This document shows, in pieces, positions 6,027 to 60,829 of a DNA stretch of 64,000 nt (position 1 is the stretch's first letter; the number at the start of each line of letters is the position of its first letter). The stretch is taken from positions 1,653,395 through 1,717,394 of the forward strand of contig OZ243944.1 of assembly GCA_965214295.1 (NCBI GenBank). The letters are read 5' to 3'. The translations under genes and the position numbers were made by a program. The notes below the pieces were generated by a model that ran no database searches, had not been told where the DNA came from, and worked only from the letters and a program-made list of their open reading frames with translations. The DNA is from Chloroflexota bacterium. Its GTDB lineage: Bacteria > Chloroflexota > UBA11872 > UBA12225 > JAJDUF01.

Positions 6027-6372
6027 GGGCGGCGGTCGGTCGTGGGGGGTGCGCGGGAAAGGTGCTGGAGGGAGAAGCCCGTACACGCGGTGGAGCAAGA
6101 CCGCGGGCGGGGCGGTACCTGGATGGCAGGATGCACTTGGTGACCTGAAGCAGGATGGTCCGGATGGAAGGATGGGCAGGATGGATTCCCGCTTTCGCGG
6201 GAATGACGGGACGGGGGGCGGGAATGACGATACAGTGGAGCGAGATAGCGGGAATGACGGTCGAGACGATGGGAGTGCGGGTAGGTCAGGGTGCGGGGAT
6301 TGGCAGGGACGCGGGGCAAGCCCCCCTGGCACAACCGGTACACGCCGGCCGGCGAGGGCGCGGTGGCGATAG

Positions 6373-6840: not shown

Positions 6841-7250
6841 TGACTAGCATGATGGTGCGAGTGCGTCCCTGCCGGGCGGTGCCCGGTGCTCCAGGAAGGG
6901 CTTGCAGCTGCCAATCCCCGTCAGGGGGACATATCAACGGGGGATAGGGGAAAGACAACGGGGGTTGTCAGAAGCAGGATTTTCAGGATGAGGGGATGAG
7001 CAGGATGAGGGTGGGTACATGATTGGGCCCCTGTGGCCCCCTCATAGGGGTAGGTATTGGTTGTCGTGGGGCACCCACACGCTTTGCGCCCAGAGCCGGC
7101 CCTGGACTTGATCCAGGGGGAGGGGCACGGCATGCCGTGCCCCTCCAAGCACCCATTGCGCCGGTTTACCTCCCCTTGTCAGGTCAGGGGGAGGGGGTGG
7201 GATTGCCGCGATGGGGGCGGCGGGTGAATCTTCCCGTAGCCAGTGCCGGG

Positions 7251-7646
7251 TCAACACCCGCAGTTGATCTCGGTGCCGTCCTGCGCCTTCTCGCCGGCGG
7301 TGGCGTAGCCGTCTCGCTTCCACCAGTCTAGCCCGCCGATCAGCTCACGCACTCGAAAGCCCGGCGTCAGCAGCTTCAGTGCCGTTTTTGTCGAGGCATT
7401 GCAGCCGATGCCGTCGCAGTAGCAGACGTAGAGCTTCGATTTGTCGAGCGACTCGGTGGAATTGAAGCAAATCTCCTTGTGGGGAAGGTTGAGTGCTCCT
7501 GGGATATGCTCTTGGGCATAGGCATTGGCAGAGCGTCCATCAACGATGATGATGGGTTCGTTCTTGCCCAAAGCCTCGTAGAGGTCCCACGAATCCATTT
7601 CGTAAGCGAGCTTGCGCTGGTAGTGGTTCAGCTGCTCGATGCTCAC
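7251..7646 (-). CDS. rhodanese-domain sulfurtransferase with Cys-rich C-terminal tail
   Basis: rhodanese fold sequence (IIIVDGRSANAYAQEHIPGALNLP, CYCDGIGC active-site loop); gene body is low-GC relative to flanks. Confidence 0.7.
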   Translation of the reverse strand: MSIEQLNHYQRKLAYEMDSWDLYEALGKNEPIIIVDGRSANAYAQEHIPGALNLPHKEICFNSTESLDKSKLYVCYCDGIGCNASTKTALKLLTPGFRVRELIGGLDWWKRDGYATAGEKAQDGTEINCGC

Positions 7647-7907
7647 GGTGTTTTTCCTTCATCAACGTTTTGAGTTGTCGAAACCGCGGCCGGCACCGCG
7701 CTGCACACTCGCGTCTGCCGGTCCAGAAAGGGTGTGCGGGGGAGGCTATCAAGCGATCTTGCTGCGATTCTACCGTAACGGAGGTGCTGTGGCGGCGTCC
7801 CTGCCAGCAAAGGGTACAATGGCTGCCCGCATAGAACCGTCGGTTCAAGCGTGCTCGATTGGCGGCCAGGCGCGAGGCCAGTGCATCGCTGGCAAGGAAG
7901 GATGCTC

Positions 7908-8855
7908 ATGATGGACTATCGTCGGCTCGGACGCACCGGCCTCACCGTCTCCGCGATTGGCTGCGGCACTTGGGAGCTGGGTGGGCGCGAATGGGGCGAG
8001 ATCGGCACCGAGGACGCGCTGGCCGTCCTGCGCCATGCCTACGATCACGGCGTCACTTTCTTCGATACCGCCGATCAGTACGGCGGTGGTCGCAGCGAGC
8101 GGCTGCTCGGCAAGGCGTTCGGCGGGCAATCCGAGGTCGTGATTGCGACTAAGGTTGGCTACCCGCCGGAGTCGGACGGCTGGTTGGTTCGGCGTGGCTC
8201 CCCACCGCAGCTCAATAGCAGCCGCGCTTATATCACCGCTGCCGTCGAAGGCTCGCTGCGGCGGCTGCGCCGGGAGGCGATTGACCTCTATCAACTGCAC
8301 CAAGCGCCGCCGCCGGAGCAGTGGGGCGAGGCGTTTGCCACGTTGGAGGCCCTGAAGCACGCCGGTAAAATCCGGCATTACGGCGTATCGGTGAATGTCG
8401 AAACCGGCTTGCGCGTGCTACGGGAAACCGACGCGGAGTGTCTGATGCTCGTCTATAACCTGCTCACACCGGAGCCGGAGGCCGAGCTACTGCCGCTGGC
8501 AGAGCTAAACGGCGTGGGTGTCGTTGCCCGTACACCGCTGGCCTCCGGCTTCCTCACCGGTGAGGTCACCGCTGCTACGCAGTTCGGTCCGGGCGACTAT
8601 CGCGGCCTCTGGCCCCGCGAGCGGCGCGAGCACGAGGCGGCGCACGCAGCCGCTTTCTCCTTCCTCGCTACGGACGCTCGCACGCCGTCCCAGGCGGCGC
8701 TGCGCTTTTGCCTGGCGCATCCGGCCGTCTCCACCGTCGTACCGGGGATGATGAGTGTGGACCAGGCGGCTGATGGCATTGCGGCGCTGGCGGCCCCGCC
8801 GCTTTCGGCGGCGGAGCTAGGCCGGGTCCGCGCCATCTGGTCTACCTGGGAGTGA
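7908..8855 (+). CDS. aldo/keto reductase
   Basis: MMDYRRLGRTGLTVSAIGCGTWELGG, IDLYQLHQ; RBS AAGGAAGG upstream. Confidence 0.8.
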   Translation: MMDYRRLGRTGLTVSAIGCGTWELGGREWGEIGTEDALAVLRHAYDHGVTFFDTADQYGGGRSERLLGKAFGGQSEVVIATKVGYPPESDGWLVRRGSPPQLNSSRAYITAAVEGSLRRLRREAIDLYQLHQAPPPEQWGEAFATLEALKHAGKIRHYGVSVNVETGLRVLRETDAECLMLVYNLLTPEPEAELLPLAELNGVGVVARTPLASGFLTGEVTAATQFGPGDYRGLWPRERREHEAAHAAAFSFLATDARTPSQAALRFCLAHPAVSTVVPGMMSVDQAADGIAALAAPPLSAAELGRVRAIWSTWE

Positions 8856-11490: not shown

Positions 11491-12768
11491 CTACGCTGAC
11501 TTCACCAACCCGAGCACGAACTCCTCATGCATACGCAGTTCAATCCCATTCATCTTGGAGTTACCCCAGCGGGCCGGCATCATCCGCCGATCCCGGTCGA
11601 GCGCGCGCTTGCCAATTCCTACCACGTCGAACCCGAGCCGCGTACTGATCTCTGCGAGGTGCTCTTGCGTCTGCACACGGATGCCGCGCATCGTGGATGG
11701 CCCGACGACAATCCCGGCAGCCGTGCCGGTACGCAGCACGCGATACATCTCGGCTAAGACGGCTCGCAGCTCGACAAGGTACTTCTGCAAGACCCTAGCC
11801 TTACGGGGGTCGCGTTGCGCCAGCTCCGATACACACCGCGCTGCTCCCGCCGGCAAGTCGTCGGCGATTGTCCCGTGGCTGTTTTCGGACCCGATATAAG
11901 TCGAGCGTAGCGCCGAGAGTGAGCTGATCGGCTCGCCAAACCAGATCAACGAGAATTTATACGCCCGCATGTAGTCCAGGGCGTTCGCATACGGTGGCGA
12001 GGTTATCACCAGATCAACCGACTCATCGTCAATAGGTAGCTCGCGGGCATCGGCACGGTGGAGCGCAACCGGGAATACGTCGTCCGGGAGTGACCGCAGC
12101 GCGGTCACGCTCTTCCGCAGCCGAGTCTTGAATTGTGCGATGGCACTACGCACCGTTTTCGAGGGCGCGCGGTGCGGTCGTGTATGCGCGAGGTCACGGG
12201 CCAAGGACACGCCCCCGCTTTTGGTAATGATGATGGAAGAGAAGACCACCTCGAGTACCTCGCGCACCTCGGTATCCGGTTCGTCTTCGACGTTCAGCAG
12301 CAGCGCCAGTAGCTCATGCTGCGTTTCAGGCATAAACCAGTAGTCGAGGAAGTCTCGCGTCGCCGGGTCAAACCGACGTTCGATCTCCGTCTCCAGAGCA
12401 GGCTTGTCCATGAGTAACATCGAGGCGTTGGCGGTAACGGAATCCCCGGCTGCACGCAACTGCTCATGATCTACGGATCGCGTCTTCACCCGGCTCACCC
12501 GCACGGCGAGGGGATCGAGGTCCACGCCGATAGCCCGGCGTCCTAAGAGCGCCGCTTCGAGTACAGTCGTGCCGGAACCCATCATCGGATCGAGTACGGT
12601 ATCGCCGGGGCGCGTCAGCTGCTCGATGAACGTGCGTGGCAACTGAGGGGGAAACTTCGCGGCAAAGGCGTGGATCGTGTGCGTGGTGTAGGAGCTACTC
12701 GCATTATGGAAATCCAGATCGCCGTTGATAATGGTATGTAGGCGTTCGCGCGCGTTAACAGAGGTCAT
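11491..12768 (-). CDS. DNA amino-methyltransferase (N6-adenine or N4-cytosine), alpha-class order (motif I ... motif IV), orphan
   Basis: motif I DPMMGSGTT near N-terminus, motif IV SPPY ~200 aa later; no restriction endonuclease gene adjacent; moderately lower GC than flanks. Confidence 0.8.
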   Translation of the reverse strand: MTSVNARERLHTIINGDLDFHNASSSYTTHTIHAFAAKFPPQLPRTFIEQLTRPGDTVLDPMMGSGTTVLEAALLGRRAIGVDLDPLAVRVSRVKTRSVDHEQLRAAGDSVTANASMLLMDKPALETEIERRFDPATRDFLDYWFMPETQHELLALLLNVEDEPDTEVREVLEVVFSSIIITKSGGVSLARDLAHTRPHRAPSKTVRSAIAQFKTRLRKSVTALRSLPDDVFPVALHRADARELPIDDESVDLVITSPPYANALDYMRAYKFSLIWFGEPISSLSALRSTYIGSENSHGTIADDLPAGAARCVSELAQRDPRKARVLQKYLVELRAVLAEMYRVLRTGTAAGIVVGPSTMRGIRVQTQEHLAEISTRLGFDVVGIGKRALDRDRRMMPARWGNSKMNGIELRMHEEFVLGLVKSA

Positions 12769-15336: not shown

Positions 15337-17448
15337 ATGCTCCCGACGACACGCACTCTGTCCCCTCTGCGCCGCATCGCCAAGTCGCTGATACTGACGC
15401 TCTGTGTGCTCGGCCTGACGGCAGCGGCCGTGTTGGCGGCGCCAGCGCGCCAAGCCGCGTCCGACGAGGCCATTCCCGATGGCTGGCACTATCGCCAGGC
15501 GTCCGGCACGGCCGACGGTCGCGGGTTTGATCTGCGCGACCTCCCGCATACGCCGGTGGGACCGGTGTCGTTCTGGACGCACGCCGAGAACATGGGCGGG
15601 GTTGAGATCCTCGGCTACCCGGCCAGTCGTGCCTTCGTCGGGCGCGACGGCTGTGTGTACCAGGTCCTACAGCGCGTCACCTTGCAAGCCTGCCAGGGAC
15701 ACGGTATCCGCTTCGCCAACACGTTCCAGATTCTCGAGGAGGCCGTTCAGGACACCTTCCTCGATTCGGTCCGGCAGATTCCCAGGGGACGTGCCGACGG
15801 CGCTCGCTCATTCGATGAGGCGGTCGCTGTCCGCCTGGGCTGGTTGTGGGATGATGCCATCAGAGCGGCGTTCTACAATCCGCCCCATGGCGTGGCGCCT
15901 TCGGATCCTTGGACACCCCACGATGCGATCAACCTCTACGGTCTGCCGATGTCCATACCGGAAGACTACGGTCCGTTCGTCTCTCAGCGGTTCCAGCGCA
16001 TTGCCTTCCAGCGTTGGAAGGTGGACCACCCGGCGGGCATCTTCGCCGCGGGCAGTGTAGTGCCGGTGCTCGGCGGTGATCTATTGAAGGAAACGGGAGT
16101 GCTCAGTGGCGAGGTGACGACGCCGCACGCAGCCGGCGCCTCGCTGATCGCGGCCTTGCCGTCCGTGCCGAGCTTCCCACCCGTCCCCGGCAAAGCGCCG
16201 CCGCCGCTGCCGCCACCACCACCGCCTCCGAAGCCGATTCCTACCCCGGAGCCACGACCCGTCGCGCCCCCGACGCCGGTGGCTACCCAAGCGCCACAGG
16301 CCACTGCGGCCCCAATTCCACCGACGGCCACGCCCATTCCGCCGACGGCTACGCCCGTACCGCCGACCGCCACGCCGCGGCCCTTGCGGCCCTTGCCGGC
16401 GGGCCGGCCCTTCCGGTTGGAATATGGCTTCCAGGCCCATCTGCTCGACACCCGCTTCGGCCGGCGTGCGAACGCCATTCGGCTGACGCAGGAGGCCGGC
16501 TTTACCTGGATCAAGCAGCAGGTCGTCTGGAGCCAGATCGAGAAGCAACCCGGTATCTATGATCCGCAGGAGATGAGCTACCTGGACGGATCGGTCAACG
16601 ACTCCGCCGCGGCTGGCCTCAAGGTACTGTTGAGCATCGTGAAGTCCCCCGATTTCTACGCTGTGACCGGGGGCCACTCGCCGGCCGATCCGACGAAGCT
16701 CGGCGACTTCTTCCGGTTCCTCGCCAGTCGCTACAAGGGCAAGGTGCAGGCCTTCGAGACCTGGAATGAGCAGAACTTGGCCGGCGAGTGGGGCCAAGGA
16801 CGGCTGTGTGGCAACTTCCCGGCCGAGTTCCTAGCACTACAGAAAGCCGCCTACGAGGGCGTGAAGGCCGGTAATCCCCAGGCCGTCGTCGTCTTCCCGG
16901 CGCTGACGCCGACCGGACACGGTGACTGCAACGCCGCGCTCGACGACGTGGTGTACCTGGATCGGCTCTACCGAGACACCGGTGGGCAGATCAAGAACTA
17001 CTTCGACGTCATGGGCACGCATCCGTCCGGCTACAACAGCCCGCCCGGTGACGGAGTTGGTCGGTCAACGGCGCCCGGTTCCGGCTTCCGCAACCACCCC
17101 AGCTTCTTCTTCCTGCGGTTCACGGAGCTACGGGAGGTGATGCTGAGGCATGGGGACGACAAGCCGATGTGGTTCACCGAGTTTGGCTGGAGCGTGTGCG
17201 ACCCGAACAACCGCGTACCGCACTATGAGTACTGCGGCGACAACAGCGAAGAAGAGCGGGCCAGGTACTTCGAGCAGGCCTTCCAGATGCTCTGGGAGCA
17301 GTACCCCTACGTGCAGGTGGCCATCGTGTGGAATCTCAACTTCCGCGACATTGTGCCCTCGACCGACGAGAAGTACGGCTTTGGCTTGGTCAACAACGAT
17401 GGCAGCACGACCCCGGCCTACGACGTGCTGAAGGCCCAGCTCAAGTAA
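15337..17448 (+). CDS. secreted multidomain protein: unknown N-terminal domain, Pro/Thr-rich linker (IPPTATP x3), C-terminal clan GH-A (GH5-like) glycoside hydrolase domain
   Basis: signal peptide; NEQ (ETWNEQN) acid/base-like and TEFG (WFTEFGW) nucleophile-like motifs; RBS GAGGAGG. Confidence 0.7.
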   Translation: MLPTTRTLSPLRRIAKSLILTLCVLGLTAAAVLAAPARQAASDEAIPDGWHYRQASGTADGRGFDLRDLPHTPVGPVSFWTHAENMGGVEILGYPASRAFVGRDGCVYQVLQRVTLQACQGHGIRFANTFQILEEAVQDTFLDSVRQIPRGRADGARSFDEAVAVRLGWLWDDAIRAAFYNPPHGVAPSDPWTPHDAINLYGLPMSIPEDYGPFVSQRFQRIAFQRWKVDHPAGIFAAGSVVPVLGGDLLKETGVLSGEVTTPHAAGASLIAALPSVPSFPPVPGKAPPPLPPPPPPPKPIPTPEPRPVAPPTPVATQAPQATAAPIPPTATPIPPTATPVPPTATPRPLRPLPAGRPFRLEYGFQAHLLDTRFGRRANAIRLTQEAGFTWIKQQVVWSQIEKQPGIYDPQEMSYLDGSVNDSAAAGLKVLLSIVKSPDFYAVTGGHSPADPTKLGDFFRFLASRYKGKVQAFETWNEQNLAGEWGQGRLCGNFPAEFLALQKAAYEGVKAGNPQAVVVFPALTPTGHGDCNAALDDVVYLDRLYRDTGGQIKNYFDVMGTHPSGYNSPPGDGVGRSTAPGSGFRNHPSFFFLRFTELREVMLRHGDDKPMWFTEFGWSVCDPNNRVPHYEYCGDNSEEERARYFEQAFQMLWEQYPYVQVAIVWNLNFRDIVPSTDEKYGFGLVNNDGSTTPAYDVLKAQLK

Positions 17449-17542
17449 GCGCAGGATTAGGCAACGGCGGGAGGCGCCGGAGGCCGCAGCCCACGGACGG
17501 TTGCAGCCTCCGGCGTCCCCCCGCTCAGGTTTCTACATCATC

Positions 17543-18709
17543 ATGACTATGTTACGTTGGTGGTTAGCGCTCTTGATGCTGGCAGTCGGTATCACCCTCG
17601 CCGGCTGCGACGGTGACGACACGGCGCCGGAGACAGCACCGGTCGCCGCCACGGCCGCCGCGGCGCGCAGTACGTCGGGGCTGCAATACGGTTTCCAGGC
17701 CCATCTGCTCGATACACGCTTTGGCCGCCGCGAGAACTCCATTCGACTGACGCGAGAAGCCGGCTTTACCTGGATCAAGCAGCAGGTCCGCTGGAGTCAG
17801 GTCGAAAAGGAACCGGGAGTCTACGACCCGCAGGAAATGAGCTATCTGGACGGTACGGTGAACGACGCTCACGCGGCGGGACTGAACGTGCTGCTCAGTA
17901 TCGTCAGCTCTCCCGACTTCTACGCCGTACCGAACGGTCACTCACCCGCCGATCCGACGAAGCTCGGCGACTTCCTGCGCTTCCTCGCAGCGCGCTACGT
18001 CGGGAAAGTGCAAGCATTCGAGACCTGGAATGAGCAGAACTTGGCCGGCGAGTGGGGCCAAGGACGGCTGTGTGGCAACTTCCCGGCCGAGTTCCTAGCA
18101 CTACAGAAAGCCGCCTACGAGGGCGTGAAGGCCGGTAATCCCCAGGCCGTCGTCGTCTTCCCGGCGCTGACGCCGACCGGACACGGGGACTGCAACGCCG
18201 CGCTCGACGACGTGGTGTACCTGGATCGGCTCTATCGAGAGACCGGTGGAGAGATCAGGCACTACTTCGACGTCATGGGCGCTCATCCCTCCGGGTACAA
18301 CAGCCCGCCCGGCGACGGAGTTGGTCGGTCAACGGCGCCCGGTTCCGGCTTCCGCAACCACCCCAGCTTCTTCTTCCTGCGGTTCACGGAGCTACGGGAG
18401 GTGATGCTGAGGCATGGGGACGACAAGCCGATGTGGTTCACCGAGTTCGGCTGGAGCGTCTGCCCGAACGTCGTCGTGCCTGGGTATGAGTATTGCCGGG
18501 ACAACAGCGAAGAAGAGCGGGCCAGGTACTTCGAGCAGGCCTTCCAGATGCTCTGGGAGCAGTACCCCTACGTGCAGGTGGTCATCGTGTGGAATCTCAA
18601 CTTCCGCTCCATCGTCCCGGAGACGGATGAAAAGTGGGGCTTTGGGCTAGTCAACGAAGACTGGTCCACAACGCCGACCTATGAAGTGCTGAGGGGACTA
18701 CCCAAATAG
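17543..18709 (+). CDS. lipoprotein, GH5-like glycoside hydrolase (paralog of C-terminal domain of upstream gene)
   Basis: lipobox LAGC; same NEQ/TEFG motifs; 100-220-bp tracts identical to 15337..17448. Confidence 0.7.
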   Translation: MTMLRWWLALLMLAVGITLAGCDGDDTAPETAPVAATAAAARSTSGLQYGFQAHLLDTRFGRRENSIRLTREAGFTWIKQQVRWSQVEKEPGVYDPQEMSYLDGTVNDAHAAGLNVLLSIVSSPDFYAVPNGHSPADPTKLGDFLRFLAARYVGKVQAFETWNEQNLAGEWGQGRLCGNFPAEFLALQKAAYEGVKAGNPQAVVVFPALTPTGHGDCNAALDDVVYLDRLYRETGGEIRHYFDVMGAHPSGYNSPPGDGVGRSTAPGSGFRNHPSFFFLRFTELREVMLRHGDDKPMWFTEFGWSVCPNVVVPGYEYCRDNSEEERARYFEQAFQMLWEQYPYVQVVIVWNLNFRSIVPETDEKWGFGLVNEDWSTTPTYEVLRGLPK

Positions 18710-18890
18710 GGACGTAGCACGAACCGGCCGCCAGGCCGCCGCACCTCGCCCACCAAGCCGGCGCCGGCCGGAATCCAGCGCACCCACCGGGCCGACGGTG
18801 CCGGGCGCGCGTCATTACGGCGGAAGCCGCAATCCAGGCTGTCCGGGGGGGGGCCAGAGAGCAACCAGTACCTCTGGTCGCCGCCGCACG

Positions 18891-18972: not shown

Positions 18973-19182
18973 CTACTCCAGCCAGCCATTGCGGAAGGCG
19001 ACGGCGATGGCCTGCGACGTGGAGCGCACGCCGAGCTTGGCGTGGACCAGCCGCAGGTGGTTATGCACAGTGCCGACGCTCACGCCCCACTCCGCGGCGA
19101 TTTGGGCACGGGTGAGACCATCGGCCAGCAGTTCGAGCGCTCCTAGTTCGCGGGGACTTAACGGATTGGGACGGTCGCCCAT
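18973..19182 (-). CDS. LuxR/GerE-family HTH-only transcriptional regulator (~69 aa)
   Basis: LSPRELGALELLADGLTRAQIAAEWGVSVGTVHNHLRLVHAKLGV; RBS GGAGG 8 nt upstream of ATG 19182. Confidence 0.6.
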   Translation of the reverse strand: MGDRPNPLSPRELGALELLADGLTRAQIAAEWGVSVGTVHNHLRLVHAKLGVRSTSQAIAVAFRNGWLE

Positions 19183-19264
19183 GATGTTTACCTCCTCATA
19201 GTTGGCTGCGGCCACTATTCTATATCGAATGAGTGCAATGGCGCCACTCCCGCACCGTTTCCCG

Positions 19265-19440
19265 CAGGGCCTTTCCATTGCCACCACATTGTCACCACTT
19301 CAACAGGCTCAGTGCCGGCTCTGAGCGGAGCGCAGGGTCGCTCCGCCGCGGCTGAGATTCTTCGCTCCGCTCAGAATGGCAGTGGAAAGGCCGCTCAGAA
19401 GGACCGGTTTGGCGGCGACTTTGGAAAGGCCCTCCGTTTC
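19265..19440. repeat. ~165-bp structured intergenic repeat element, copy A (copy B at 60830..60995, ~90% identical)
   Basis: direct comparison of the two loci; contains 13-bp inverted repeat GAGCGGAGCGCAG...CTGCGCTCCGCTC and CTCAGtgccggctCTGAG hairpin. Confidence 0.6.
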
Positions 19441-19700: not shown

Positions 19701-20861
19701 GTGAACCGTAGACAATTCGGCGAGACGACCGTGCGCTTGCTGGCGCTGGCCGGCGCATTCGCGCTGGCAGCCTGCGGGACTGACGAGGTGGGCGGACCAC
19801 CAACGGCGAGCGGCGGGACCGTTTCGGAGAGCACGAGTGCGCCGGCCAGTGCCGCCCCGACGGCGGCCGCGGCCCAACCGACGACGGAGCCGCTCGCCTT
19901 GGCGGATTTTGACCCTAGCGAGATCCTCACGGTCCTGCCGCGCGACGCGATCCCGGCGATTTTCGATCCGGAATTCATGACGGTTGACGAGATTCAGCAG
20001 CGTCAGAGCCTCCAGGACGAGGAGCCGGTGCTGGGCTTCGAGCACAATGGCGAAGCGCATGCCTACTCTGTCCTACAGCTGGACCGCCACGAGATCGTCA
20101 ACGATATCGTCGGCGGCCGGGCTATCGCGGCGACGTGGTGACCGCTCTGCTTCACGGGCATCGTGTATGCTCGCGACATCAACGGTGATCGCTACGAGTT
20201 TGGCGTCTCCGGCAAGCTCTTCCGCAATGTCCTGATTATGTATGACCGGCAGACCAAGTCCCTGTGGAGCCAACTGCTCGGGGCAGCAGTTGACGGGCCG
20301 CTGAAGGGCACCAGACTGGAAATGCTGCCGGCCATCTTTACCACTTGGGGAGTGTGGCGGCGTGAGCATCCTGATGGCATGGTGCTCAAGAAGCTGGAGC
20401 CGAGCCGCCAGACGTATGGCGGGTACTGGCAGTCGCAGGATGCGGGAATCTTGGGCGAGAAGTACCAAGACGAGCGCCTGAAGACCAAGCAGTTCGTGCT
20501 CGGCGTGCGGATCAACGACCAGCCCAAGGCATACCCGTACCTGCGCCTCAGCGAGGAGCCGGTCGTGAATGAGACGTTTGCCGAGACGCCGCTGGTGGTG
20601 GTGTTCGATGATCGGTCGGCCAGCGGGGCGATCTTTGCGCGCACAGTGGCGGGCAAGACCCTCACCTTTAGGTTGGCCGAGCGGACCGAGACGGCACCGC
20701 TCATCACCGATCAAGAGACGGGCACGAAGTGGCATGGCCTCTCCGGTGTGGCCCTCGATGGTCAGCTTGCCGGCCAACGGCTCACCGCGATTCCGGCCAC
20801 GCCCTCCTTCTGGTTTGGCTGGAAGGACCATTTCCCCAACACGGCGGTCTACGGCGAGTAG
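19701..20861 (+). CDS. DUF3179-family lipoprotein with in-frame TGA (20139-20141), the position predicted for the first Cys of a conserved CxxC motif (family motif recalled from memory): candidate selenoprotein (U-P-L-C) or nonsense-disrupted gene
   Basis: GTG start with RBS GGAGGA; lipobox LAAC; ORFs 19701..20141 and 20163..20861 are in the same frame separated by a single TGA; read-through gives ...GGRAIAATW-[TGA]-PLCFTGIVYARD... Confidence 0.5.
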
Positions 20862-21320
20862 AATCGTCCTGCTCCCACTGGGGAGACTTTTTTTAGCCAC
20901 AGAGAACACAGAGTAAGGGTGTCCCCCGGCGGAGCGGGACACTGGCCCCGCTAGGGTCCCTCCGCTTCGCAGGGGGACATAGATTCCCACGTGCGCGGGA
21001 ATGACGAGTGGCGAGGTGCGCCTTTCAGGAGTTGTGTCGTAGCGTGCGGCGAGGATCGCAACGATGGTCGCACGTTGATTATCGCGGGCTGTTGTGCGAT
21101 AATCTCGGCACAGGCAAATACGCTGGCCTGAATCAGCAAGCTGGGAGCCAGCACTGTAGCAATTACCACAGATGAACCGGCGGCATCTTTGTCGGTGAAA
21201 CCCAGTCCCTTGAGCGGCCCGGTGACAGGAAGGGCAGACCGGCATGGACCAAGAAGTTGTCGGTCATATGCCGCAGTGAGATTGTGTGGCCGGCAGTTGC
21301 CTAAGACGAGGCTTGGGAAT

Positions 21321-22169
21321 ATGACTATCTGTCTGGGTGTCCTATGTGCCGATGTGGGCAAGGGATCACAAGCAGTAGTTGTTGCTTCAGACCGCATGGT
21401 AACTTGGAGCGGCCTTGCCGAGTTCGAGCACGGAACCCCAAAGGTTGAAAGCGTAAGTGATCGAGTCGTAGGTTTGATTGCAGGGGATGCCCTTCGCGGT
21501 GCGGAGTTGGTCCGCAGATTGCGGATTGCTGTTCCAGACACATCCCCCTTGGTAGAGAAGGTGGCTAGTGCTGCTGGCGATGTATATGCCGAATGACGCC
21601 GGGAACAACTTGAAAGTGATTTGTTTACGCCTCGTGGTGTCTCCATGAGGGACTTTTATGCAGGATTACAGCAACAGTGGATGCCAAACATAGCACTAGC
21701 AATTGATGAGCGGGTTCAGGATTTCGACTATGGTGTAGAGTTGATGATTGCAGGTGTTGATAGTGCGGGAGCGCACCTTCACATGGTATCCAATCATGGG
21801 GGGAACTATCGTGATTATAGAAAGATCGGCTTTGCGGCAACGGGGAGTGGTGGTATACACGCTATCCAGTCCATTATTGGCTTTGGGCATGATCCTACTT
21901 GTACGCTTCACGAGACATTATTCCGGGTATATGTCTCAAAGCGCCGAGCAGAGGTCGCACCTGGAGTGGGACGGGATACCGATTTGACTGTCATCAGGGC
22001 AGGGGACGGATGCCGCATTAATCTGGACGAAGAAGCACTTGAAGCTCTTGAAAAGCTGCGTGTTGAACACCAAGGGCCAGCAGTCGAGGAAGTAGAAGCG
22101 CGAGTAGCTAAGTTGGCACTGTTCCCGGATGAGACTGATGATGGCAAACAACTTGCAGCTAACGACTAG
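21321..22169 (+). pseudogene. proteasome-beta/HslV/Anbu-like Ntn-hydrolase with in-frame TGA at 21594-21596 (aligns to conserved Trp of HslV DWRTDR)
   Basis: N-terminus MTICLGV...AVVVASDRMVT matches proteasome beta TTIVGV..GVVLAADRR; GSGG (ATGSGGIHA) motif; both halves in same frame; low-GC region. Confidence 0.5.
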
Positions 22170-22467
22170 CGCCGCTCCACCTGAGCATGGCGCCACACGA
22201 CCACGAGTAGTCTACGCTGAACCTTGGCGTTGGCAAATCAAGCAGTGGCAGAACGAGAACAAACTGTTCAAGCTACGTATGGCCATCGCCAGGCGACTGG
22301 GGCGTACCAATCTTCATATCCCGGAACCTGTAGAGCCTCCTGATCCAGGCGAGCGCAAGGACCGGATACAGCCGGCAGGTGGCGAGTAACGCGAGGGCAG
22401 CAGCCGGCGGGCTGCAATCCGCTACACTCGACCTACCGACAAGACCAAGCGCGTTGGAGGTCAGTGC

Positions 22468-23454
22468 ATGCCCCCGTATGATGTCGTCACGTTCGGCGAA
22501 GCGCTCCTGAGGCTGACGCCGCCGAGTTTCCAGCGGATCGAGCAGGCCACCACCTTCCACGGGAGCATCGGTGGCGCCGAGTTGAACACCGCCGTCGGGC
22601 TGGCGCGCCTGGGCATGCGCGTCACCTGGGTCTCCCGCCTGCCGCGCAATCCGCTGGGGCGGCTCATCGCCAACAGCGCCAGGGAGCACGGCGTAGACGT
22701 ATCCCACGTAGTCTGGTCCGATACGGACCGGGCGGGGGTGTATTTCCTGGAGGAAGGCGCGGCCCCGCGGCCGTCGTCGGTGCTCTACGACCGCGCGGAT
22801 TCGGCCTGCGCGCGCCTCAAGCCGGAGGCGCTGGATTGGGACGCGATCCTCGCTGGCACGCAGGTATTCCACGTCACCGGGATTACCCCGGCCTTGAGCG
22901 CCGGCTGTCGCCAGGCAACGTTCGAGGCCATCGAGTCCGCTAAGGCCGCTGGTGCGCTGGTCAGCTTTGATCCCAACTTCCGCAGCAAGCTCTGGAGCAC
23001 CGTGGAAGCCAAGCAGGTGTATCTGGGGATTGCCCCCCAGCTCGATATTCTGTTCTGCTCGCACGAAGGGCTGCGTGATTTCTACGACATCGTGGCCGAC
23101 GACGCAATTAGCGCCGCCCGGCAGGCGCAGGAGCGCTTTGGCCTGCAAGCGGTGGTCATGACGACCCGCGAAGCGCGCGGCGTGCATGACAACACGGTCG
23201 GCAGCATTGTCGTCGCCGACCGGGTGTATCGGGATCGGGAGCGCGAAGTCGAGGTGGTCGAGCGGCTGGGCGCTGGTGATGCATATGCGGCCGGGTTGCT
23301 GTTCGGGCTACTCACTGGCGGCTGGGACAAGGCGGTGGCCTACGGCGGCGCAGCCGGCGCCCTCAAGCACTCGATTCCCGGCGACTTCCCCCTGCTCACC
23401 GAAGAGGAAATCCGCCAGGAGATCGAGGCGCCCTCCGTCCGCATCAGCCGCTAG
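22468..23454 (+). CDS. kdgK: PfkB-family sugar kinase (2-dehydro-3-deoxygluconokinase-like)
   Basis: PfkB family N-term (VVTFGEALLRL) and C-terminal GAGDAYAAG anion-hole motif. Confidence 0.8.
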   Translation: MPPYDVVTFGEALLRLTPPSFQRIEQATTFHGSIGGAELNTAVGLARLGMRVTWVSRLPRNPLGRLIANSAREHGVDVSHVVWSDTDRAGVYFLEEGAAPRPSSVLYDRADSACARLKPEALDWDAILAGTQVFHVTGITPALSAGCRQATFEAIESAKAAGALVSFDPNFRSKLWSTVEAKQVYLGIAPQLDILFCSHEGLRDFYDIVADDAISAARQAQERFGLQAVVMTTREARGVHDNTVGSIVVADRVYRDREREVEVVERLGAGDAYAAGLLFGLLTGGWDKAVAYGGAAGALKHSIPGDFPLLTEEEIRQEIEAPSVRISR

Positions 23455-23459
23455 TCCGG
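23432..23459. repeat. 28-bp direct repeat CCTCCGTCCGCATCAGCCGCTAGTCCGG, left copy (covers last 8 codons + stop of kdgK)
   Basis: identical 28-mer recurs at 25405..25432; intervening 1.9 kb is low-GC. Confidence 0.65.
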
Positions 23460-23519
23460 AATGTGCATGAATGCGGAGAGTGCTAAGATATAGCATCCCC
23501 TGTCCCCATTCCGGATGAG

Positions 23520-25262
23520 TTGGTGATGGAGTTTTTGTACAGTCCTGACGTGTACTCCATGCCCGCCGTCGCATTCATGGTGGCAACCGTAGCACTCTCT
23601 CTGCTACTGCAACTGCGCCGTCGCTACCGTGATAACCTCGCGCTTTATAAGCGAGATAAGAAAGTAGCACTTGTTCTACTGGTGCAAATGCACCGTTACG
23701 ATGTGCTGCTGGTCGGGTTGCTATGCCTGGCCATCCTGGTGTATAGCACGGGTAACCTCTCGCTACAGCCGGCCTACCCTTATGGTGATGGAATACAAAA
23801 CTTGGAGCTGGGAATCCGACTGGCGCAGGAGGGGCGCTACAGTATCTGGGACGTCACCGGGTTTCACGAGCGCGAGCCGTTCGTGCCATTCCTGATTGCA
23901 GCCATCGACCTGACGCGGCGAGTACTCGGGCACGAGCCGGTGCTGCTGGTTTGTGTAGATCCCGACGTGGCAGCCGCACCAGCGTGTCCCCCGACATATC
24001 TGACGTATGCGCCGTACAAAGTCCTGAACGTCGTGTTCCTGCTACTTGCCGGGGTGAGTGCTTTTTTTATTGTGCTGTGGTTCACCAGGGTAAAGTTGCT
24101 GGCGTACGCCGCGTTGCTCCTCACGACGCAGAGCAGGGAGCTATTGTCAAGCGCTGACAGTTTCTACACCGAAGTACCCGCCGCCGGCCTCATGGTGGCA
24201 ACCAGCGTATTTGCTCTGCTGACGATAACGCGGCGCCGCCCGATATACAGCGTGTTGCTGGGGTTGGTGCTCGCCGCGCTCGTGTTGACCAAGACCATTT
24301 TCGCCTATCTGTGGATCTTTATCATCATCACCTTCGTGTTGTTGGACCTATCGAAGAAAAAGCTCGGCCGGTCAACCTTGACTCTCGTCGGGTTTTTCCT
24401 TGTCGCGTACTTCATCCCCCTCGGCGCTTGGATGACGCGCAACTACGCAACGTCCGGAGACTTTTCATTGGTGGCTGAACGACCAGCGGCCGAAGAGTGG
24501 GGTATACGCGCCGCGTATAACGAGATGCGCGACGATGAGTTTTTCGCGGGCTTCTTGTTGTTCTTTCCCGTAACACGTTCGAATATTAACAACTTCTTCC
24601 CAAAAGAATCCTACGAGCGTCTCACGTCGTTTTATTTCGAAGATCTAGGCCGACGGGGTAAATTCTATAGTAGAGAAAGAGAGTTGAATGACGGAAGAGA
24701 CAAGCATATGGAGAAGGTGCCCCCAGGAATGACGTTCAGGCAGTGGAGTATAGACACGCTCGCAAGCGAAATGAGGGCAGAAATGCTTGCCGACCCCTGG
24801 CAGCATTTCAGGGTATCACTGCTGTTGGGCTGGCGCGGTGTGTTTAGGTGTTGTTTTTTTGGGCTTGGGTATGACTTCATGCGAAGTGACCTGCTGCTCG
24901 CCGACACATGGGGATTCACAGACTGGCCATCCTGGAGTTGGAGTCCGTTCGGCCCGGTTTGGAACAGCCTCGTCAGGATCACTACGTTTCTTGCGCTCAT
25001 TGTTGTGCCGTTATGGTTCTGGTTTTCTCAGCGGCGGTTCGAGACGGTGCTCATTGTGCTGCCGGCACTCTATGCACATGGCCTGTATGCCGTGGCGTCA
25101 TCCTTCATTCCCCGCTATGGATTTCCCCTGATCCCACTGCGGATAGTGGCGGCGATGTTGCTCGTGTTCCTGTTGGTGTCCGCGCTGTACCGGCTAGGGA
25201 TGAAGTCGGTTGAGTTCGTTACCGAATACCGGAAGAGATGCGGCAAAAGTAGATGGCAGTAG
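23520..25262 (+). CDS. polytopic membrane protein, possibly GT-C-fold glycosyltransferase (ArnT/PMT-like)
   Basis: many TM helices; ~50% GC vs ~67% flanks; function call from general architecture only. Confidence 0.55.
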   Translation: MVMEFLYSPDVYSMPAVAFMVATVALSLLLQLRRRYRDNLALYKRDKKVALVLLVQMHRYDVLLVGLLCLAILVYSTGNLSLQPAYPYGDGIQNLELGIRLAQEGRYSIWDVTGFHEREPFVPFLIAAIDLTRRVLGHEPVLLVCVDPDVAAAPACPPTYLTYAPYKVLNVVFLLLAGVSAFFIVLWFTRVKLLAYAALLLTTQSRELLSSADSFYTEVPAAGLMVATSVFALLTITRRRPIYSVLLGLVLAALVLTKTIFAYLWIFIIITFVLLDLSKKKLGRSTLTLVGFFLVAYFIPLGAWMTRNYATSGDFSLVAERPAAEEWGIRAAYNEMRDDEFFAGFLLFFPVTRSNINNFFPKESYERLTSFYFEDLGRRGKFYSRERELNDGRDKHMEKVPPGMTFRQWSIDTLASEMRAEMLADPWQHFRVSLLLGWRGVFRCCFFGLGYDFMRSDLLLADTWGFTDWPSWSWSPFGPVWNSLVRITTFLALIVVPLWFWFSQRRFETVLIVLPALYAHGLYAVASSFIPRYGFPLIPLRIVAAMLLVFLLVSALYRLGMKSVEFVTEYRKRCGKSRWQ

Positions 25263-25404
25263 ATTTTGCGGACTTGATGCCTAGCATGAGGGATAGCGCG
25301 CGCGAAAAGGAGAAGAGAGGGGGAAGAGGGCCTTTTGACCAGTGCGAGGCTTGGAACTCTCGCAGATGTAGAGGCGGGAAAAGATGATAGCAGCTTTGGG
25401 TCTA

Positions 25405-25432
25405 CCTCCGTCCGCATCAGCCGCTAGTCCGG
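25405..25432. repeat. 28-bp direct repeat, right copy
   Basis: identical to 23432..23459. Confidence 0.65.
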
Positions 25433-25436
25433 GTGA

Positions 25437-26523
25437 TTAATCGAGCCGGAAAAAGGTGCCGGCGATGTAGCGTACTAGCTCGTGCTCATGCACCGGCTCG
25501 TCGCCGTCCTTGGTCGTGAACCAGTAGGCCGTGAACAGCCGGCCATCCGGCAGCTCGGTGACGACCGGATACCCCAGGTCCCAGCAATACGCGCCATCGC
25601 GGACCACAAACTCCTCGCTCCAGGTCTCCCCTAGATCGTCGCTCACCACCCCCAGAATGCCACGACCCCCGCGCGCCGGATACTCGCGGCGAGCGAACAG
25701 GACCAGAATGCGCCCATCGTGCAGCACCAGGGCACGGGGCGAGCGATACCGGGGGCCGCTGTCGTCTCCAGGTGCCCGGTCGGGGAGTGGGCCGGTGAGG
25801 GGCAGGTTATACGTGCCGGGGCTGACAATCGCGCGCGGCGCCGACCAGCTCATGCCGTCGTCCTCGGAGAAGGCCACGTGGGGCCAGTTTTCGGGGAGCC
25901 GGTGCATGACGCACAACAGCCGGTCATCGGGCAGCCGGTGTACCCCCAAATAGCTGTAGCCATAGAACATATCGGGCGCATGAGCCGCGCGAGCAATCTC
26001 GCTGACGTACTCCCACGACAGGCCGTGGTCGTAGCTGGCATAGAAGCAGGCGACGTTGCGCCGATAGGTGGCTCCCACCATGCCGAGCACACCGTTGTCG
26101 AGCTGCACGTGGCCGAGGTTCGCGCAGAGGAACCCGCCGTCGGGTGCCCACGATGGCCCCTCGATCAGCGTGGCGTGCCGCTCCCAAGTGCGGCCACGAT
26201 CCCGGCTGCGGAGGGAAAAGGACGGGGGATGCTCGCGGCGGCCCAAGTGGAAGTTGATGCCCGGTGGGAGCTGTGGATCGTTCCGCAGCTCCCGACCACC
26301 AAAAGGAAACCTTAGATACTCGCCGTGGCAGAAGCGGCGCTTGGTAATCCACCGGCCCGGCCAGGTAGGCGACGGCAAGCTCGCCGTCGCCGAATTTCCA
26401 GATGCCGCCGCGGTTCGGCGCATACAGGTAGAGATGATCGTCGTAGTGGACGCGGATGTGCTCCACGTCATGCACCTCGACCTTTCGGGTGCCGAGTCTT
26501 CTTCTCGATGAGTGCGTTATCAT
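25437..26523 (-). pseudogene. BNR/Asp-box exo-alpha-sialidase-like glycosidase, apparent frameshift near 26370
   Basis: Asp-boxes SRDRGRTW, SEDDGMSW, SDDLGETW in frame of 25437..26471; protein-like N-terminus (VEVHDVEHIRVHYDDHLYLYAPNRGGIWKFGDGELAVAYL) in the other frame 26370..26523. Confidence 0.55.
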
Positions 26524-32474: not shown

Positions 32475-32657
32475 CAGGTGGTCGGTGGTTCCGGCCGTCA
32501 TTGCGGCGGAAGCTGCAATCCAGTTCATGCGGAGGGCGCAGCGCGCATTTCCCCTTGCGGCCCGATCCAGGCTAAACTCACTGCGGCGCTAGTGCTCCGT
32601 TCCTCCTGCTCATCACAAGTAGCGGGGCACTGAGGCAGCCGGTCCGAGGAGGAGACG

Positions 32658-36304: not shown

Positions 36305-36406
36305 CCCCTTGGTAGCCGGAGACGACACAGGCTATCATCTGGGGTATTGGGAAGAGGTTCGCCTATCTGGACGCACTCCGCCTCGCGCGGTGGAGAGGCA
36401 AGCGAG

Positions 36407-37588
36407 ATGACTGAGGCATTTGTCACGCCGGAAATCATCACGTGGGCACGGGGCCGCTTCAAGTGGGACCACGAGATGCTCGCAAAACGAGTGGGCGTCA
36501 ACGTGCGTACCGTCATTGCCTGGGAAACTGGCAAGAAGCGCCCCACTCAGCGGCAAGCGACCAAGCTCGCCGCCAAACTTCACGTTCCCTTGGGGTATCT
36601 GTGGCTCAACGCGCCACCAGCACTTGAGGTACCGATACCTGATCTTCGCACTGTTAGCGGTGTCGGGCCCCAGCCACCCAGCGCAAACTTTATAGATGTT
36701 CTGTACGATGCACGTAGAAAACAGCAATGGTATCGAGAATACTTGCAGAGCGAGGGGGCACGACCACTCCCATTTGTGGGCAGATTTCCTCTGAAATATG
36801 ATCCTAGATTCGGTGATGTTGCTGATGACATGAGAGCTACTATAGGCGTTGATAATGCACGACAGAAATCCAAGAAACACCTTCAATTTCTCGGTTTTCT
36901 TGCGGAAAATGCAGATAAAATAGGGATACTTGTATTGCGGAGTGACAAGGTGGGGAATAACACACGCCGAAAAATAAATGTTGATGAATTTCGTGGCTTT
37001 GCGTTCGTTGATGACTTAGCACCACTGGTTTTCATCAACAGTGCCGATACTCCTGCTGCCAGGATATTCACACTGGCGCATGAGCTTGCTCACGTGTGGA
37101 TCGGAGAAAGCGGAATATCTAACCCAACCGCAATCGGCATGGTTTTGCAGAAGGATAATCGCATCAATCGCTTCTGTAATCAGGTTGCGGCCGAGCTTCT
37201 TATACCAGCTGCGAGTTTTGTGGAAAAATGGCAACAAGGTGGAAATGTCGAAGAAAACATAACGGCGATGAGCGAATTCTATCACGTGAGCCGCACTGCG
37301 GTCCTGATTCGAGCCTATGAGCATGAGCTTCTGCCTGATGAAATCTATCGTCTTAAGCTTGAGCGACTGCAGCAATGGGAAATTCAGGAGCCTCAAGGTG
37401 GTGGCGGGAGTTTCTGGAACAACTTCCTTGCCAGCAATAGCCACACCTTGGTTCACGCGGTGCTTACCTCTGCCGCGGAGGGCCGCATTTCCGAGCGTGA
37501 TGCGGCAACCTTGCTAAGTCTCACCAATCGTAAGACGCTGAGATCGGCACAAGAGAAATTCATTCGTAGGCAGGTAGTCGGTGCCTGA
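36407..37588 (+). CDS. XRE-type HTH fused to ImmA/IrrE-family (DUF955) zinc metallopeptidase
   Basis: HTH (LAKRVGVNVRTVIAWETGKK), HEXXH (AHELAHVW); RBS GGAGAGG; ~50% GC. Confidence 0.75.
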   Translation: MTEAFVTPEIITWARGRFKWDHEMLAKRVGVNVRTVIAWETGKKRPTQRQATKLAAKLHVPLGYLWLNAPPALEVPIPDLRTVSGVGPQPPSANFIDVLYDARRKQQWYREYLQSEGARPLPFVGRFPLKYDPRFGDVADDMRATIGVDNARQKSKKHLQFLGFLAENADKIGILVLRSDKVGNNTRRKINVDEFRGFAFVDDLAPLVFINSADTPAARIFTLAHELAHVWIGESGISNPTAIGMVLQKDNRINRFCNQVAAELLIPAASFVEKWQQGGNVEENITAMSEFYHVSRTAVLIRAYEHELLPDEIYRLKLERLQQWEIQEPQGGGGSFWNNFLASNSHTLVHAVLTSAAEGRISERDAATLLSLTNRKTLRSAQEKFIRRQVVGA

Positions 37589-38063
37589 CTACTGGCTTGA
37601 CTCGGATACTTTGATTCGGCCGTATCGGGAGCTTACCTTTGATTGGCTGCCGAGCCTCTGGACGATCCTGCGGGAGAAGGGTGTGGAGGGAATCATTGCG
37701 AGTAGTTTGTATGTCTATGAAGAACTCAAGGATGGTGATGACGCTCTAGCGAAATGGGCTGAGGAGTGCCGGGACTTTGGGTTGTGGGTGCCGGCCGACG
37801 AGAGTGTCCAGCATGCCTACTCCACAATTGCAAACTATGTAGTGCAGCATCGGACTTATTCTCCGGAGCATGTGGCTATGTTCCTGGGCAAGGCTGATGC
37901 ATGGATCATCGCGCATGCTCTGGCCGGTGGTGGCAGAGTGGTCACGTTCGAGGTGTCTCAGCCGCTATCAGCGAGGCCCAAAATCCCGGATGTCGCTGGC
38001 AATTTCGGGGTGGACTGCTTAACGCTACATGAAATGCTCAGGGAAATGGAGGTAAGAATCTAA
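37581..38063 (+). CDS. DUF4411 PIN-like domain protein (putative nuclease/toxin partner of ImmA/IrrE-HTH gene)
   Basis: GTG start overlapping upstream stop by 8 bp (GTGCCTGA); family assignment from memory of conserved ImmA-DUF4411 pairing. Confidence 0.6.
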   Translation: MPDYWLDSDTLIRPYRELTFDWLPSLWTILREKGVEGIIASSLYVYEELKDGDDALAKWAEECRDFGLWVPADESVQHAYSTIANYVVQHRTYSPEHVAMFLGKADAWIIAHALAGGGRVVTFEVSQPLSARPKIPDVAGNFGVDCLTLHEMLREMEVRI

Positions 38064-39261: not shown

Positions 39262-39408
39262 CTCGCCCTCCTCCAACCCCGGCCCGTCATTCCCTCGTTC
39301 GCGGGAATCTACCGTGCAGCCGCGTGCCCCGGTTGCCCTGGATTCCCGCTTGCGCGAGAGTGACGGATGAGGGGCCGGGAACGACGGGGCTGCTTGTAGT
39401 CATCCATG

Positions 39409-41504: not shown

Positions 41505-42305
41505 ATGAACACTGCGGAGCAGCAAGCGCACTTCCGCACCTTCGGCTTCGTGGTCCAGCGTCAGGCGTTCACGCCCGACGAGATGCGGGCAATTACGCAC
41601 GAGTTCGACGCTCTGATGACCGAGCTGCGCGAGGGCCAGCCCTTTATGGGGGAGAGCAGTGAAAATCGCGCTCCGTTCGTCGAGCTACGCCCGGCACTGT
41701 CCCGGCTGGCGGTGGACGACCGCATCCATGGCACCGTCGAGAAGTTGCTCGGCCCGGACTTCCTCTGGGCCAGCTCCGAGGGCAACATCACCGTCGGCGA
41801 CCATCTCTGGCATCCCGATAGGCCGGGCGACGAGGAAGAGATTTCGTACCTCCGCCTCAAGACGATGATTTACCTGGACGAAACGACCCGAGATGCCGGT
41901 GCCATCCGCCTGATCCCCGGCTCGCATCGTCTGCCGCTGCACGAGGAGATCGAGCGTGAGCAGCGCCACCAGCACGGGCCAACGTTGGCGCCGTTCGGTG
42001 TGCCCGGCGCCGAGGTGCCCTGCTTCGCCTACGAGTCCCGACCCGGCGACGTGCTCTTCTTCAACCAAAGCCTCTGGCATGGGGTCTTCCACGGGTGGGT
42101 CGGGCGCCGCTATATCGCGCTGAAGTACGCCGCCATGCCGCAAACGGACAAGCAGATTGGCTCGCTCGACTACTATTCCCGCGGCACTATCTTCCAGCCG
42201 GTCGATTCGTTCGCGCAGAGCGACAATCCCCGCATTCGGCGCATGGTGGACCCGCTACCGGCGCTAGGACGCAAGCAGGTCCCGCCCTTTGTCCCCTTCC
42301 GCTGA
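41505..42305 (+). CDS. PhyH-family Fe(II)/2OG oxygenase
   Basis: LWHPD (HxD), IPGSHR, LWHGVF. Confidence 0.75.
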   Translation: MNTAEQQAHFRTFGFVVQRQAFTPDEMRAITHEFDALMTELREGQPFMGESSENRAPFVELRPALSRLAVDDRIHGTVEKLLGPDFLWASSEGNITVGDHLWHPDRPGDEEEISYLRLKTMIYLDETTRDAGAIRLIPGSHRLPLHEEIEREQRHQHGPTLAPFGVPGAEVPCFAYESRPGDVLFFNQSLWHGVFHGWVGRRYIALKYAAMPQTDKQIGSLDYYSRGTIFQPVDSFAQSDNPRIRRMVDPLPALGRKQVPPFVPFR

Positions 42306-49337: not shown

Positions 49338-49454
49338 GTTGTGCTGACGTTTGAGCTGGAAGGCAGTGCCACCAATCCCTTTCCGTCATCCCGGTGGAAG
49401 CCGGAATCCATGCCCCCCTGCGAAGCGGGGAACATAGGGGGCCGGGGGGTAGTC

Positions 49455-51832: not shown

Positions 51833-52077
51833 CGTAGTGCCTCCCTTCCGATGAATATAACCCGGACCCGCCATTCCCACGCACGCAGGAATCCACCCTC
51901 CCCGCCGCTGGATTGCAGCCTGCGCCGCAATGACGGTGCTGGCCTGTGCCTCGTCACTGCGGCGGAAGCCGCAGTCTAGGGCTTCACGTTCCGCCGGCCG
52001 TCATTTTCATCGCTTGTGGTGCAGAGTGCAAGCTACAAGAGTGCTTCCGGCTTGTGCCGGCATGACGAGCACCCGGG

Positions 52078-55475: not shown

Positions 55476-55734
55476 CGAGCGGCCTCCTCGCTGGTGCCGG
55501 CCGACATGGCCATCTTCCGGTGCCCGGCCGCGTCCCCCGTCATTCTTGCGCCAGCGGGAATCCATGTCCCCGTGCGGAGTGGATGCCGCGCCGGAACCGG
55601 CGCATCTTCCAGGCTAAGGTAGCGTTCCCGACAAGCGCATGCAAGCCGGAGGCCAGCTGCAGTCGGGGCAATTGCATCGGAAAGAGCGCCTGATCTGTGG
55701 ACAACCACCAGAGATACCACTCCGAGCTACTGGC

Positions 55735-57298: not shown

Positions 57299-57481
57299 GC
57301 GCCGGGTGCCCTGGGTCGCACCTAGGCACACGTCATGGCGGCGGAAGCCGCCATCCAGGGCCATTCCTGGCCCCCATACTCCCCCCGCTCCGCAGGGGGA
57401 CAGCGTATTCCCTCCCCTGTGCGTCAGCACGGGGGGAGGGCAAGGGTGGGGGCCACAGCTGCAACTGGCTAGGAGGACACC

Positions 57482-60728: not shown

Positions 60729-60829
60729 GCGTACACGTCTCTCCGGCGCGTGATGGGGGTGCCGCGCTGTCGAGCGAGGCCACAGCGAGGATACCAACGG
60801 AGCGTCGGTCGCTCGCCGGGATCGTGCCA

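Follow-up and report, generated by a model that had tools for sequence, protein, structure and literature searches.

Insertion with long target duplication, the class so named by Nobusato, Uchiyama, Ohashi & Kobayashi (2000, Gene 259:99), has been on record since that year, chiefly for restriction-modification (RM) genes. Its survey by Furuta, Abe & Kobayashi (2010, NAR; PMC2853133) applied as operational cut-off a duplication of >30 bp; the class is further marked by an insert of <20 kb without mobility genes in or next to it. Searches for RM genes brought these published cases to light, and in one of them a 46-bp repeat shares 15 bp with the 3' end of a gene. The insertion was linked by the authors to DNA breakage by the inserted restriction enzymes, a mechanism that is unproven (PMC2853133); the wording of the class extends to 'RM systems and other DNAs' (PMC3457768). 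Here we describe an islet between a PfkB/KdgK-like sugar kinase gene and a convergent BNR/sialidase-like gene in a 64-kb stretch of a Chloroflexota chromosome (contig OZ243944.1; hereafter the window), whose anatomy, compared feature by feature with the published cases, appears to match this class. Shared with the class are a few kb of foreign genes that are present in one genome, with an empty site in a close relative, direct repeats of tens of bp and of variable length that were copied from the target, the lack of transposase, integrase and inverted repeats, and a frequently deviating GC content. The islet differs in its phylum and in its cargo, a gene for a GT-C-type membrane protein and no nuclease; a second islet, inserted at rpsT in related genomes, adds methyltransferases of non-DNA type and GtrA, again with no nuclease. 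The window islet would join a rare, known but mechanistically unsolved class with an unusual cargo and in an unusual phylum.

Long and variable target duplications are also characteristic of the insertion sequences (IS) IS1634 and IS1549. Those of IS1630 measure 19-26 bp (PMC2853133). Such elements and the islet have in common target duplications of variable length far above the usual 2-14 bp, but the IS elements encode a DDE transposase and carry terminal inverted repeats (TIRs), whereas the islet has neither. CIMEs, degenerate elements flanked by attL and attR, likewise combine a short, integrase-less cargo with direct repeats by which the target gene regains its 3' end, and could be mobilised in trans. 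The islet is unlike them in that no cognate autonomous element or integrase was found here, the repeat is of the clade's own sequence type, none of the relatives has a filled site and the two islets have unrelated ends. Mobile cassettes with a polytopic glycosyltransferase of serotype type and a GtrA-family partner are known as the gtr (gtrA/gtrB/gtrC) O-antigen modules of phages and islands, which ride on prophages beside int and att. The closest homologues of the islet protein and the second islet also have a GtrA-like neighbour; the window islet, in contrast, is devoid of gtrA, gtrB and phage genes, and its protein is no sequence homologue of a known GtrC family.

The window islet is bracketed by a 28-mer, CCTCCGTCCGCATCAGCCGCTAGTCCGG, of which the 64-kb window holds exactly two copies, identical at 28/28 positions (Table 1); no further match with up to three mismatches was detected in the window, and none in 100 shuffles. 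The left copy comprises the final seven codons of the kinase gene, its TAG (23452-23454) and 5 nt beyond, and the right copy ends 4 nt short of the stop of the sialidase-like gene (25437-25439, minus strand). This agrees with the initial annotation, which had described direct repeats that duplicate the 3' end of kdgK and recur next to the sialidase-like stop. The duplicated 28-bp target begins 21 nt inside the kinase gene and runs to 5 nt beyond the stop codon, and for this reason neither the C-terminus nor the stop of the kinase was lost on insertion. The unique insert (23460-25404) measures 1,945 bp and contains one gene; next to the 28-mer its ends read AATGTG... on the left and ...GGGTCTA on the right, and a circular form of the islet would carry the junction ...TTTGGGTCTA-28mer-AATGTGCATG... 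Repeat identity ends abruptly at both edges. Between the inner 100 nt of both islet sides and the host flanks, those of the window as well as those of seven relatives, similarity was at chance (p 0.17-0.99), which excludes a longer, degenerate duplication of which the repeats would be a part, an outcome that was to refute the first description of the locus.

Table 1. Coordinates of the islet, its borders and neighbours, and of the REP-like elements (repetitive extragenic palindromes) in the window
Feature	Position	Strand	Remarks
PfkB/KdgK-like sugar kinase gene	22468..23454	+	PF00294, E 2e-39; 92-94% amino acid identity to orthologues in 8 related genomes
Left copy of 28-bp direct repeat (target duplication)	23432..23459	+	exact match; aligns to the single empty-site copy of relatives
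Islet 5' non-coding end, 66 nt	23460..23525	+	not present in relatives
Sole gene of the islet, 578-aa polytopic membrane protein, predicted GT-C-type fold (PMT/ArnT/STT3-like)	23526..25262	+	
Islet 3' non-coding end, 142 nt, purine-rich	25263..25404	+	
Right copy of 28-bp direct repeat, followed by original 4-nt spacer and stop of convergent gene	25405..25432	+	
Convergent BNR/sialidase-like gene	25437..26523	-	PF13088/PF02012
REP-like elements	6176-6229, 18804-18838, 20962-21027, 32490-32524, 39277-39386, 49378-49428, 51908-51980, 55524-55566, 57325-57361		

A kinase scan of species-representative genomes yielded eight Chloroflexota metagenome-assembled genomes (MAGs) with orthologues that are 92-94% identical. 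The islet is missing from all eight, each of which has a single copy of the 28-mer with 2-6 mismatches, and the order at the empty site is kinase, 28-mer, four further nt and the stop of the sialidase-like gene. The latter gene is the direct neighbour in seven of the eight (in L008 the two stop codons lie 9 nt apart), seven relatives are colinear on both sides with flanks matching at 88-93%, and in blastn comparisons the relative coordinates 6965-6992 align to both window copies. An empty site with the kinase abutting the sialidase-like gene and one repeat copy, which had been proposed as a check, was thus found in relatives. Since all eight have the empty site, the insertion is lineage-specific, and its 28-bp target duplication has sharp edges. 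The eighth relative, L005, has an unrelated, GC-rich 112-bp insert (L005:6997-7108) between the same stops, a few nt past its single 28-mer copy, and the gap between the two convergent genes seems to tolerate insertions.

Sequence comparison also bears on the age of the islet. The identity of the two copies over 28/28 positions and the size of the protein's cluster at 90% identity, which has one member compared to 152 for the kinase, point to a recent, lineage-specific gain. Look-ups by exact protein sequence returned no entry for the islet protein or for the kinase. That the islet is instead ancestral and was lost from all examined relatives, or is an assembly chimera, we regard as highly improbable. 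Direct repeats can drive precise deletion and the source is a metagenome-assembled chromosome; an ancestral islet, however, would require eight independent precise losses, the repeat would still demand an earlier insertion, and the identical repeats together with the singleton protein cluster argue for recent gain. A chimeric join creates no target duplication that keeps the ends of both genes in register, and at the rpsT site described below four independent assemblies show this anatomy again.

Both copies of the 28-mer bear the clade's own sequence type at the positions that vary among the relatives. This is predicted by duplication of the target, but not by the copy of an att site from a donor of lower GC content. 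The latter origin would apply if the islet were a non-autonomous integrative element, CIME- or satellite-like, with the 28-mer as att core, whose circle was integrated by a tyrosine or serine recombinase encoded elsewhere and which could re-excise, the main rival reading, which we consider possible but doubtful. Direct repeats restoring the 3' end of a target gene are typical of att-site integration. For the lower-GC donor, however, the attP would have to match at 28/28 positions a stretch that varies synonymously among sister species, and the kinase site, empty in 8/8 relatives, gives no sign of repeated use, the insert of L005 being unrelated.

Signals of known mobility systems were looked for at the islet ends, in the islet and in the window. 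Neither Pfam scans of the islet nor those of the about 48 window genes detected an integrase, transposase or resolvase, in line with the initial annotation, which had listed none inside the islet; the window genes recognised by Pfam serve sugar-acid and sulfatase catabolism, and others form an RNA-repair operon or a toxin-antitoxin-like pair. The window has no tRNA gene, and Rfam gave no match in 20500-26000. The exact 28-mer had no match in viral or metagenome collections, a degenerate kinase-end pattern had none in metagenomes, and no other islet bounded by CCTCCGTCCGCATCAGCCGCTAGTCCGG was found. The initial annotation had seen here a minimal gene-cassette insertion, site-specific and possibly mobilised in trans. 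The eight empty sites uphold the insertion itself; 'site-specific' and 'mobilised in trans' are possible qualifications of it, no other islet with the 28-mer having been found. The missing integrase in both islets and the window, the lack of a related autonomous element and of the 28-mer in the viral and metagenome collections also speak against integration through an att core, as does the 28-mer itself, which is without inverted core-type sites.

Several classes of element did not fit the islet. A site of dif type (Xer/dif, IMEX, pdif) spans 28 bp, in which a 6-nt spacer separates two arms of 11 nt that show dyad symmetry; the arms of the 28-mer match at 3/11 positions and only 6/28 of its positions are self-complementary. 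An integron gene cassette is not supported, given the lack of an attC-like fold at the right end and of an integrase in the window; the single-strand fold of this end (z +0.25 and -0.53) was no better than shuffles, and the islet 3' end has no terminator, no attC-like structure and no inverted repeat to the left end. Neither a DDE transposon nor a miniature inverted-repeat transposable element (MITE) is compatible with the absence of TIRs between the islet ends, duplications of 28 and 53 bp and the lack of a second islet copy in the window. Retro-insertion of an mRNA copy was dropped, since the 3' end shows no terminator or A-tract, and within the 5' end of the older islet a conserved -10-like motif is still present. 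The islets do resemble transcription units; a consensus promoter was looked for in the 5' end of the window islet and not found.

The left junction of the window islet contains an imperfect 22-nt inverted repeat (77% complementary) in which 23442-23463 pairs with 23507-23528. The resulting hairpin (DNA fold z -4.15) joins the kinase end, inside the left repeat, to the ribosome-binding region and start of the islet gene, whose start codon it covers. When the islet part alone was shuffled, 14/1000 shuffles matched the observed gain in pairing between host and islet. This hairpin could couple expression of the islet gene to read-through from the kinase gene, or it could be due to chance.

The second event was found through a search for homologues of the cargo. 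A 47%-identical homologue, P0013, is encoded in OY759972.1, one of the eight relatives. Its gene lies in a 6.1-kb islet (L012:6007-12125) of 58% GC in flanks of 67%, which encodes two tandem GT-C-family paralogues, two methyltransferases and a GtrA-like open reading frame (ORF). It is bracketed with sharp edges by a perfect 53-bp direct repeat, which is the duplicated intergenic region between rpsT and a small ORF. The rpsT site, reached through HolA homologues, is empty in six loci of at least three related lineages (L014-L019), and the reconstructed empty site of L012 is colinear with L016-L018 over 628 nt at 90%. Filled sites occur in four genomes, L012 and L020-L022, the latter three with fewer genes in the same islet. 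The left and right repeat copies are identical in L012 and have diverged in L020-L022, from which it follows that the rpsT event is old. The tandem paralogues in L012 (6128-9926) share identical tracts of up to 169 nt and were likely shaped by gene conversion or a recent tandem duplication. Gene conversion, also homogenising these paralogues, probably accounts for the identity of the L012 repeat copies. Re-integration of an att-borne element could explain the same pattern of identical and diverged copies, and the occupation of one site in four genomes would fit such an element as well; the divergence of the rpsT islet (86%), however, resembles that of its flanks (87%), which fits vertical descent.

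No relationship exists between the 28-mer and the 53-mer, and the two islets have nothing in common at their ends, nor were shared end motifs found between the window islet and those of L012 and L020. The two insertions are independent. The dissimilar ends are a further point against a common att system, and a 53-bp duplication of unrelated sequence is more in keeping with target duplications that are long and variable than with a fixed att site. A scan of all 19 related loci for insertions with flanking direct repeats, based on overlapping high-scoring segment pairs, returned only the two events and one 12-bp case. The latter is a 1.1-kb insert relative to L012 in L019 (16100-17200) with a 328-aa ORF, the flanks of which overlap by 12 bp at the empty site; it may be another, shorter target duplication.

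With 28 bp the window duplication is far longer than the target-site duplications of DDE transposons and 3 bp short of the Furuta cut-off, while that of L012 has 53 bp. Otherwise the window islet, 1.95 kb in size, is absent from colinear relatives, has no mobility genes and lies at a single-copy target that is unique within the 64-kb window. On balance we lean towards an insertion into a staggered break, driven by the host or in trans, in which the 28 nt between the nicks would have been filled in; it is favoured because the cargo encodes no nuclease. The target would have been opened by two single-strand breaks 28 nt apart, and the incoming DNA, probably linear, would have been joined to both protruding ends, whereupon fill-in synthesis would duplicate the stretch between the nicks. 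The enzymes would come from the host or elsewhere rather than from the islet, and no specific sequence of the islet ends would be used.

Several observations weigh against this explanation. The staggered nick and fill-in are purely inferred, and no donor sequence is known. The 28 bp fall just under the >30-bp working threshold of Furuta et al. and within the range of att core identities of tyrosine recombinases. The 64 kb examined are part of a 4.23-Mb genome, elsewhere in which a trans-acting recombinase is possible. Pairing between the left repeat and the start of the islet gene exceeds expectation (14/1000 shuffles), and AATGT, the 5 nt with which the islet begins, also form the spacer in relative L003; either may indicate that a copy of the site came in with the islet, as it would with an att-borne element. 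As a remnant of a duplication, the AATGT match was taken as chance because the comparison of the inner 100 nt with the host flanks gave no signal. Finally, both islets with long repeats share a gene family, which hints at element-specific mobilisation over generic capture and would likewise suit an att-borne element; this hint is tempered by the search for cargo homologues through which the rpsT islet was found.

The lengths of the two repeats have a bearing on both remaining views of the insertion. Blocks of 28 and 53 bp are ordinary lengths of att identity, which counts in favour of att cores. They are also near the minimal efficient length for RecA-dependent recombination. A Campbell-type RecA integration of a circle already bearing the 28-bp kinase end, perhaps excised from a sibling cell and taken up, would agree with these lengths, the identical copies and the sharp edges. 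We nevertheless judge it improbable, as it accounts for spread but not for the first joining of a foreign gene to the host 28-mer, and the islet, whose protein cluster has one member, has no known second carrier.

The islet gene encodes 578 aa (alternative TTG start at 23520) with about 10 hydropathy peaks. The protein has no match of its own in Pfam, NCBIfam or PADLOC. Its AlphaFold (AF2) model, built with 30 homologues, reached a pLDDT of 84 and a pTM of 0.84, and nearly all top Foldseek matches in the PDB are GT-C proteins: ArnT (E 4e-4), AglB, STT3, PglB, PMT, ALG and Emb/Aft. Their probability is ~1, but the E-value is just 4e-4 and the TM-scores are 0.3-0.42. This predicted structure places the cargo among the membrane glycosyltransferases of GT-C fold and bears out its description as the single gene for a polytopic GT-C-like membrane protein. 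At the level of sequence, the link to curated GT-C families is transitive: paralogues of the islet protein gave PMT_2 matches below threshold, and the remote family member P0180 matches PMT (PF02366) with 33.7 bits versus a curated cut-off of 22.7. The GT-C superfamily is marked by a conserved acidic residue in the first extracytoplasmic loop; possible counterparts are D59, which hardly varies among 31 homologues, and E117, which like P118 does not vary. A profile search collected 876 cluster representatives at E <= 1e-10, many family members having PA14 or ankyrin fusions, and in the closest homologues (56% identity) a GtrA-family gene follows. We infer that the protein would transfer a sugar from polyprenyl phosphate to a glycan or protein of the envelope, on the membrane's outer face, and that it would be a typical 'flexible' surface-modifying gene.

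The insert has 54.7% GC and the window 64.2%. The contrast reported initially is therefore real, whereas the figures given for it, about 50% versus 67%, were overstated. At third codon positions (GC3) the islet gene has 0.68 and its neighbours 0.77-0.84. Homologues of the islet gene at seven other loci also have 57-58% GC within DNA of 64-68%. The GC contrast is thus partly a trait of the membrane-protein family and alone is no proof of foreign origin.

Compared to the 441-aa orthologues of the eight relatives (in L008 at 6997-8322), the sialidase-like gene of the window genome has a 239-bp internal deletion and a frameshift, and is therefore probably a pseudogene; the window ORFs 25924-26523 and 25437-26471 cover it in different frames.

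The window contains other regions of low GC content. A second low-GC islet of about 1.4 kb (21007-22402; 47-56% GC) lies just upstream of the kinase gene and is absent from 8/8 relatives. It comprises a proteasome-subunit-like gene that a stop seems to divide into two ORFs (21189-21596 and 21621-22169; weak PF00227) and an 86-aa ORF, has no long flanking repeat and sits in a REP-rich, highly variable intergenic region. A low-GC pair between two convergent enolase-superfamily paralogues (36347-38063), encoding a helix-turn-helix and M78 peptidase protein (PADLOC RmrA, E 1.5e-24) and a DUF4411 protein, is without a flanking direct repeat and has the look of an inserted module for defence or of toxin-antitoxin type. 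A 559-aa orphan gene of low GC content (42264-43943, minus strand; 43-57%), which has two PhyH dioxygenase genes as neighbours on either side and no match in Pfam, NCBIfam or PADLOC, may be another islet. As further examples of the insertion described here, the low-GC islets at about 21007-22400, 36347-38063 and 42264-43943 were rejected, since none has a flanking direct repeat of at least 14 bp.

The REP-like elements (Table 1) form a palindromic intergenic family with the core GGATTCCCGC...GCGGGAATGACGG, which also occurs in the variable intergenic regions of the relatives. A non-coding segment of ~175 nt is repeated 41.5 kb apart at 19265-19440 and 60828-60990 with 87-97% identity, one copy adjoining a small LuxR/GerE-type regulator gene (18973-19287). 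Tandem paralogous glycoside-hydrolase-like genes (15337-18709) have DNA blocks that are 78-81% identical with exact tracts of up to 170 nt, and this tandem duplication is also present in relatives. The RNA-repair operon at 45385-49337 is of Hen1/Pnkp type (PF12623, PF16542; E down to 1e-180). A gene for a Type II DNA methyltransferase is located in a stretch of slightly lower GC content at 11491-12768 on the minus strand, with no restriction gene recognised beside it.

Altogether, the two islets are clean, independent cases with a glycosyltransferase cargo and without a nuclease, in an uncultivated Chloroflexota clade with many near-complete long-read genomes, and both argue that the process behind long target duplications needs no restriction enzyme. 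The window islet shows how a surface-modifying gene can be added between two convergent genes with neither being damaged by it. Filled and empty sites of one young and one old event constitute a natural data set for inferring the mechanism. Going further, the clade might possess a recombinase-free insertion process, independent of restriction enzymes, for promoter-bearing cassettes with variable duplications of 28-53 bp and a preference for surface-glycan GT-C genes, a generalisation that we put forward as speculative and, at present, rather unlikely. If it were true, long target duplication would be a general, cargo-independent route of gene gain, the enzymology of which could be worked out from the genomes of this clade.

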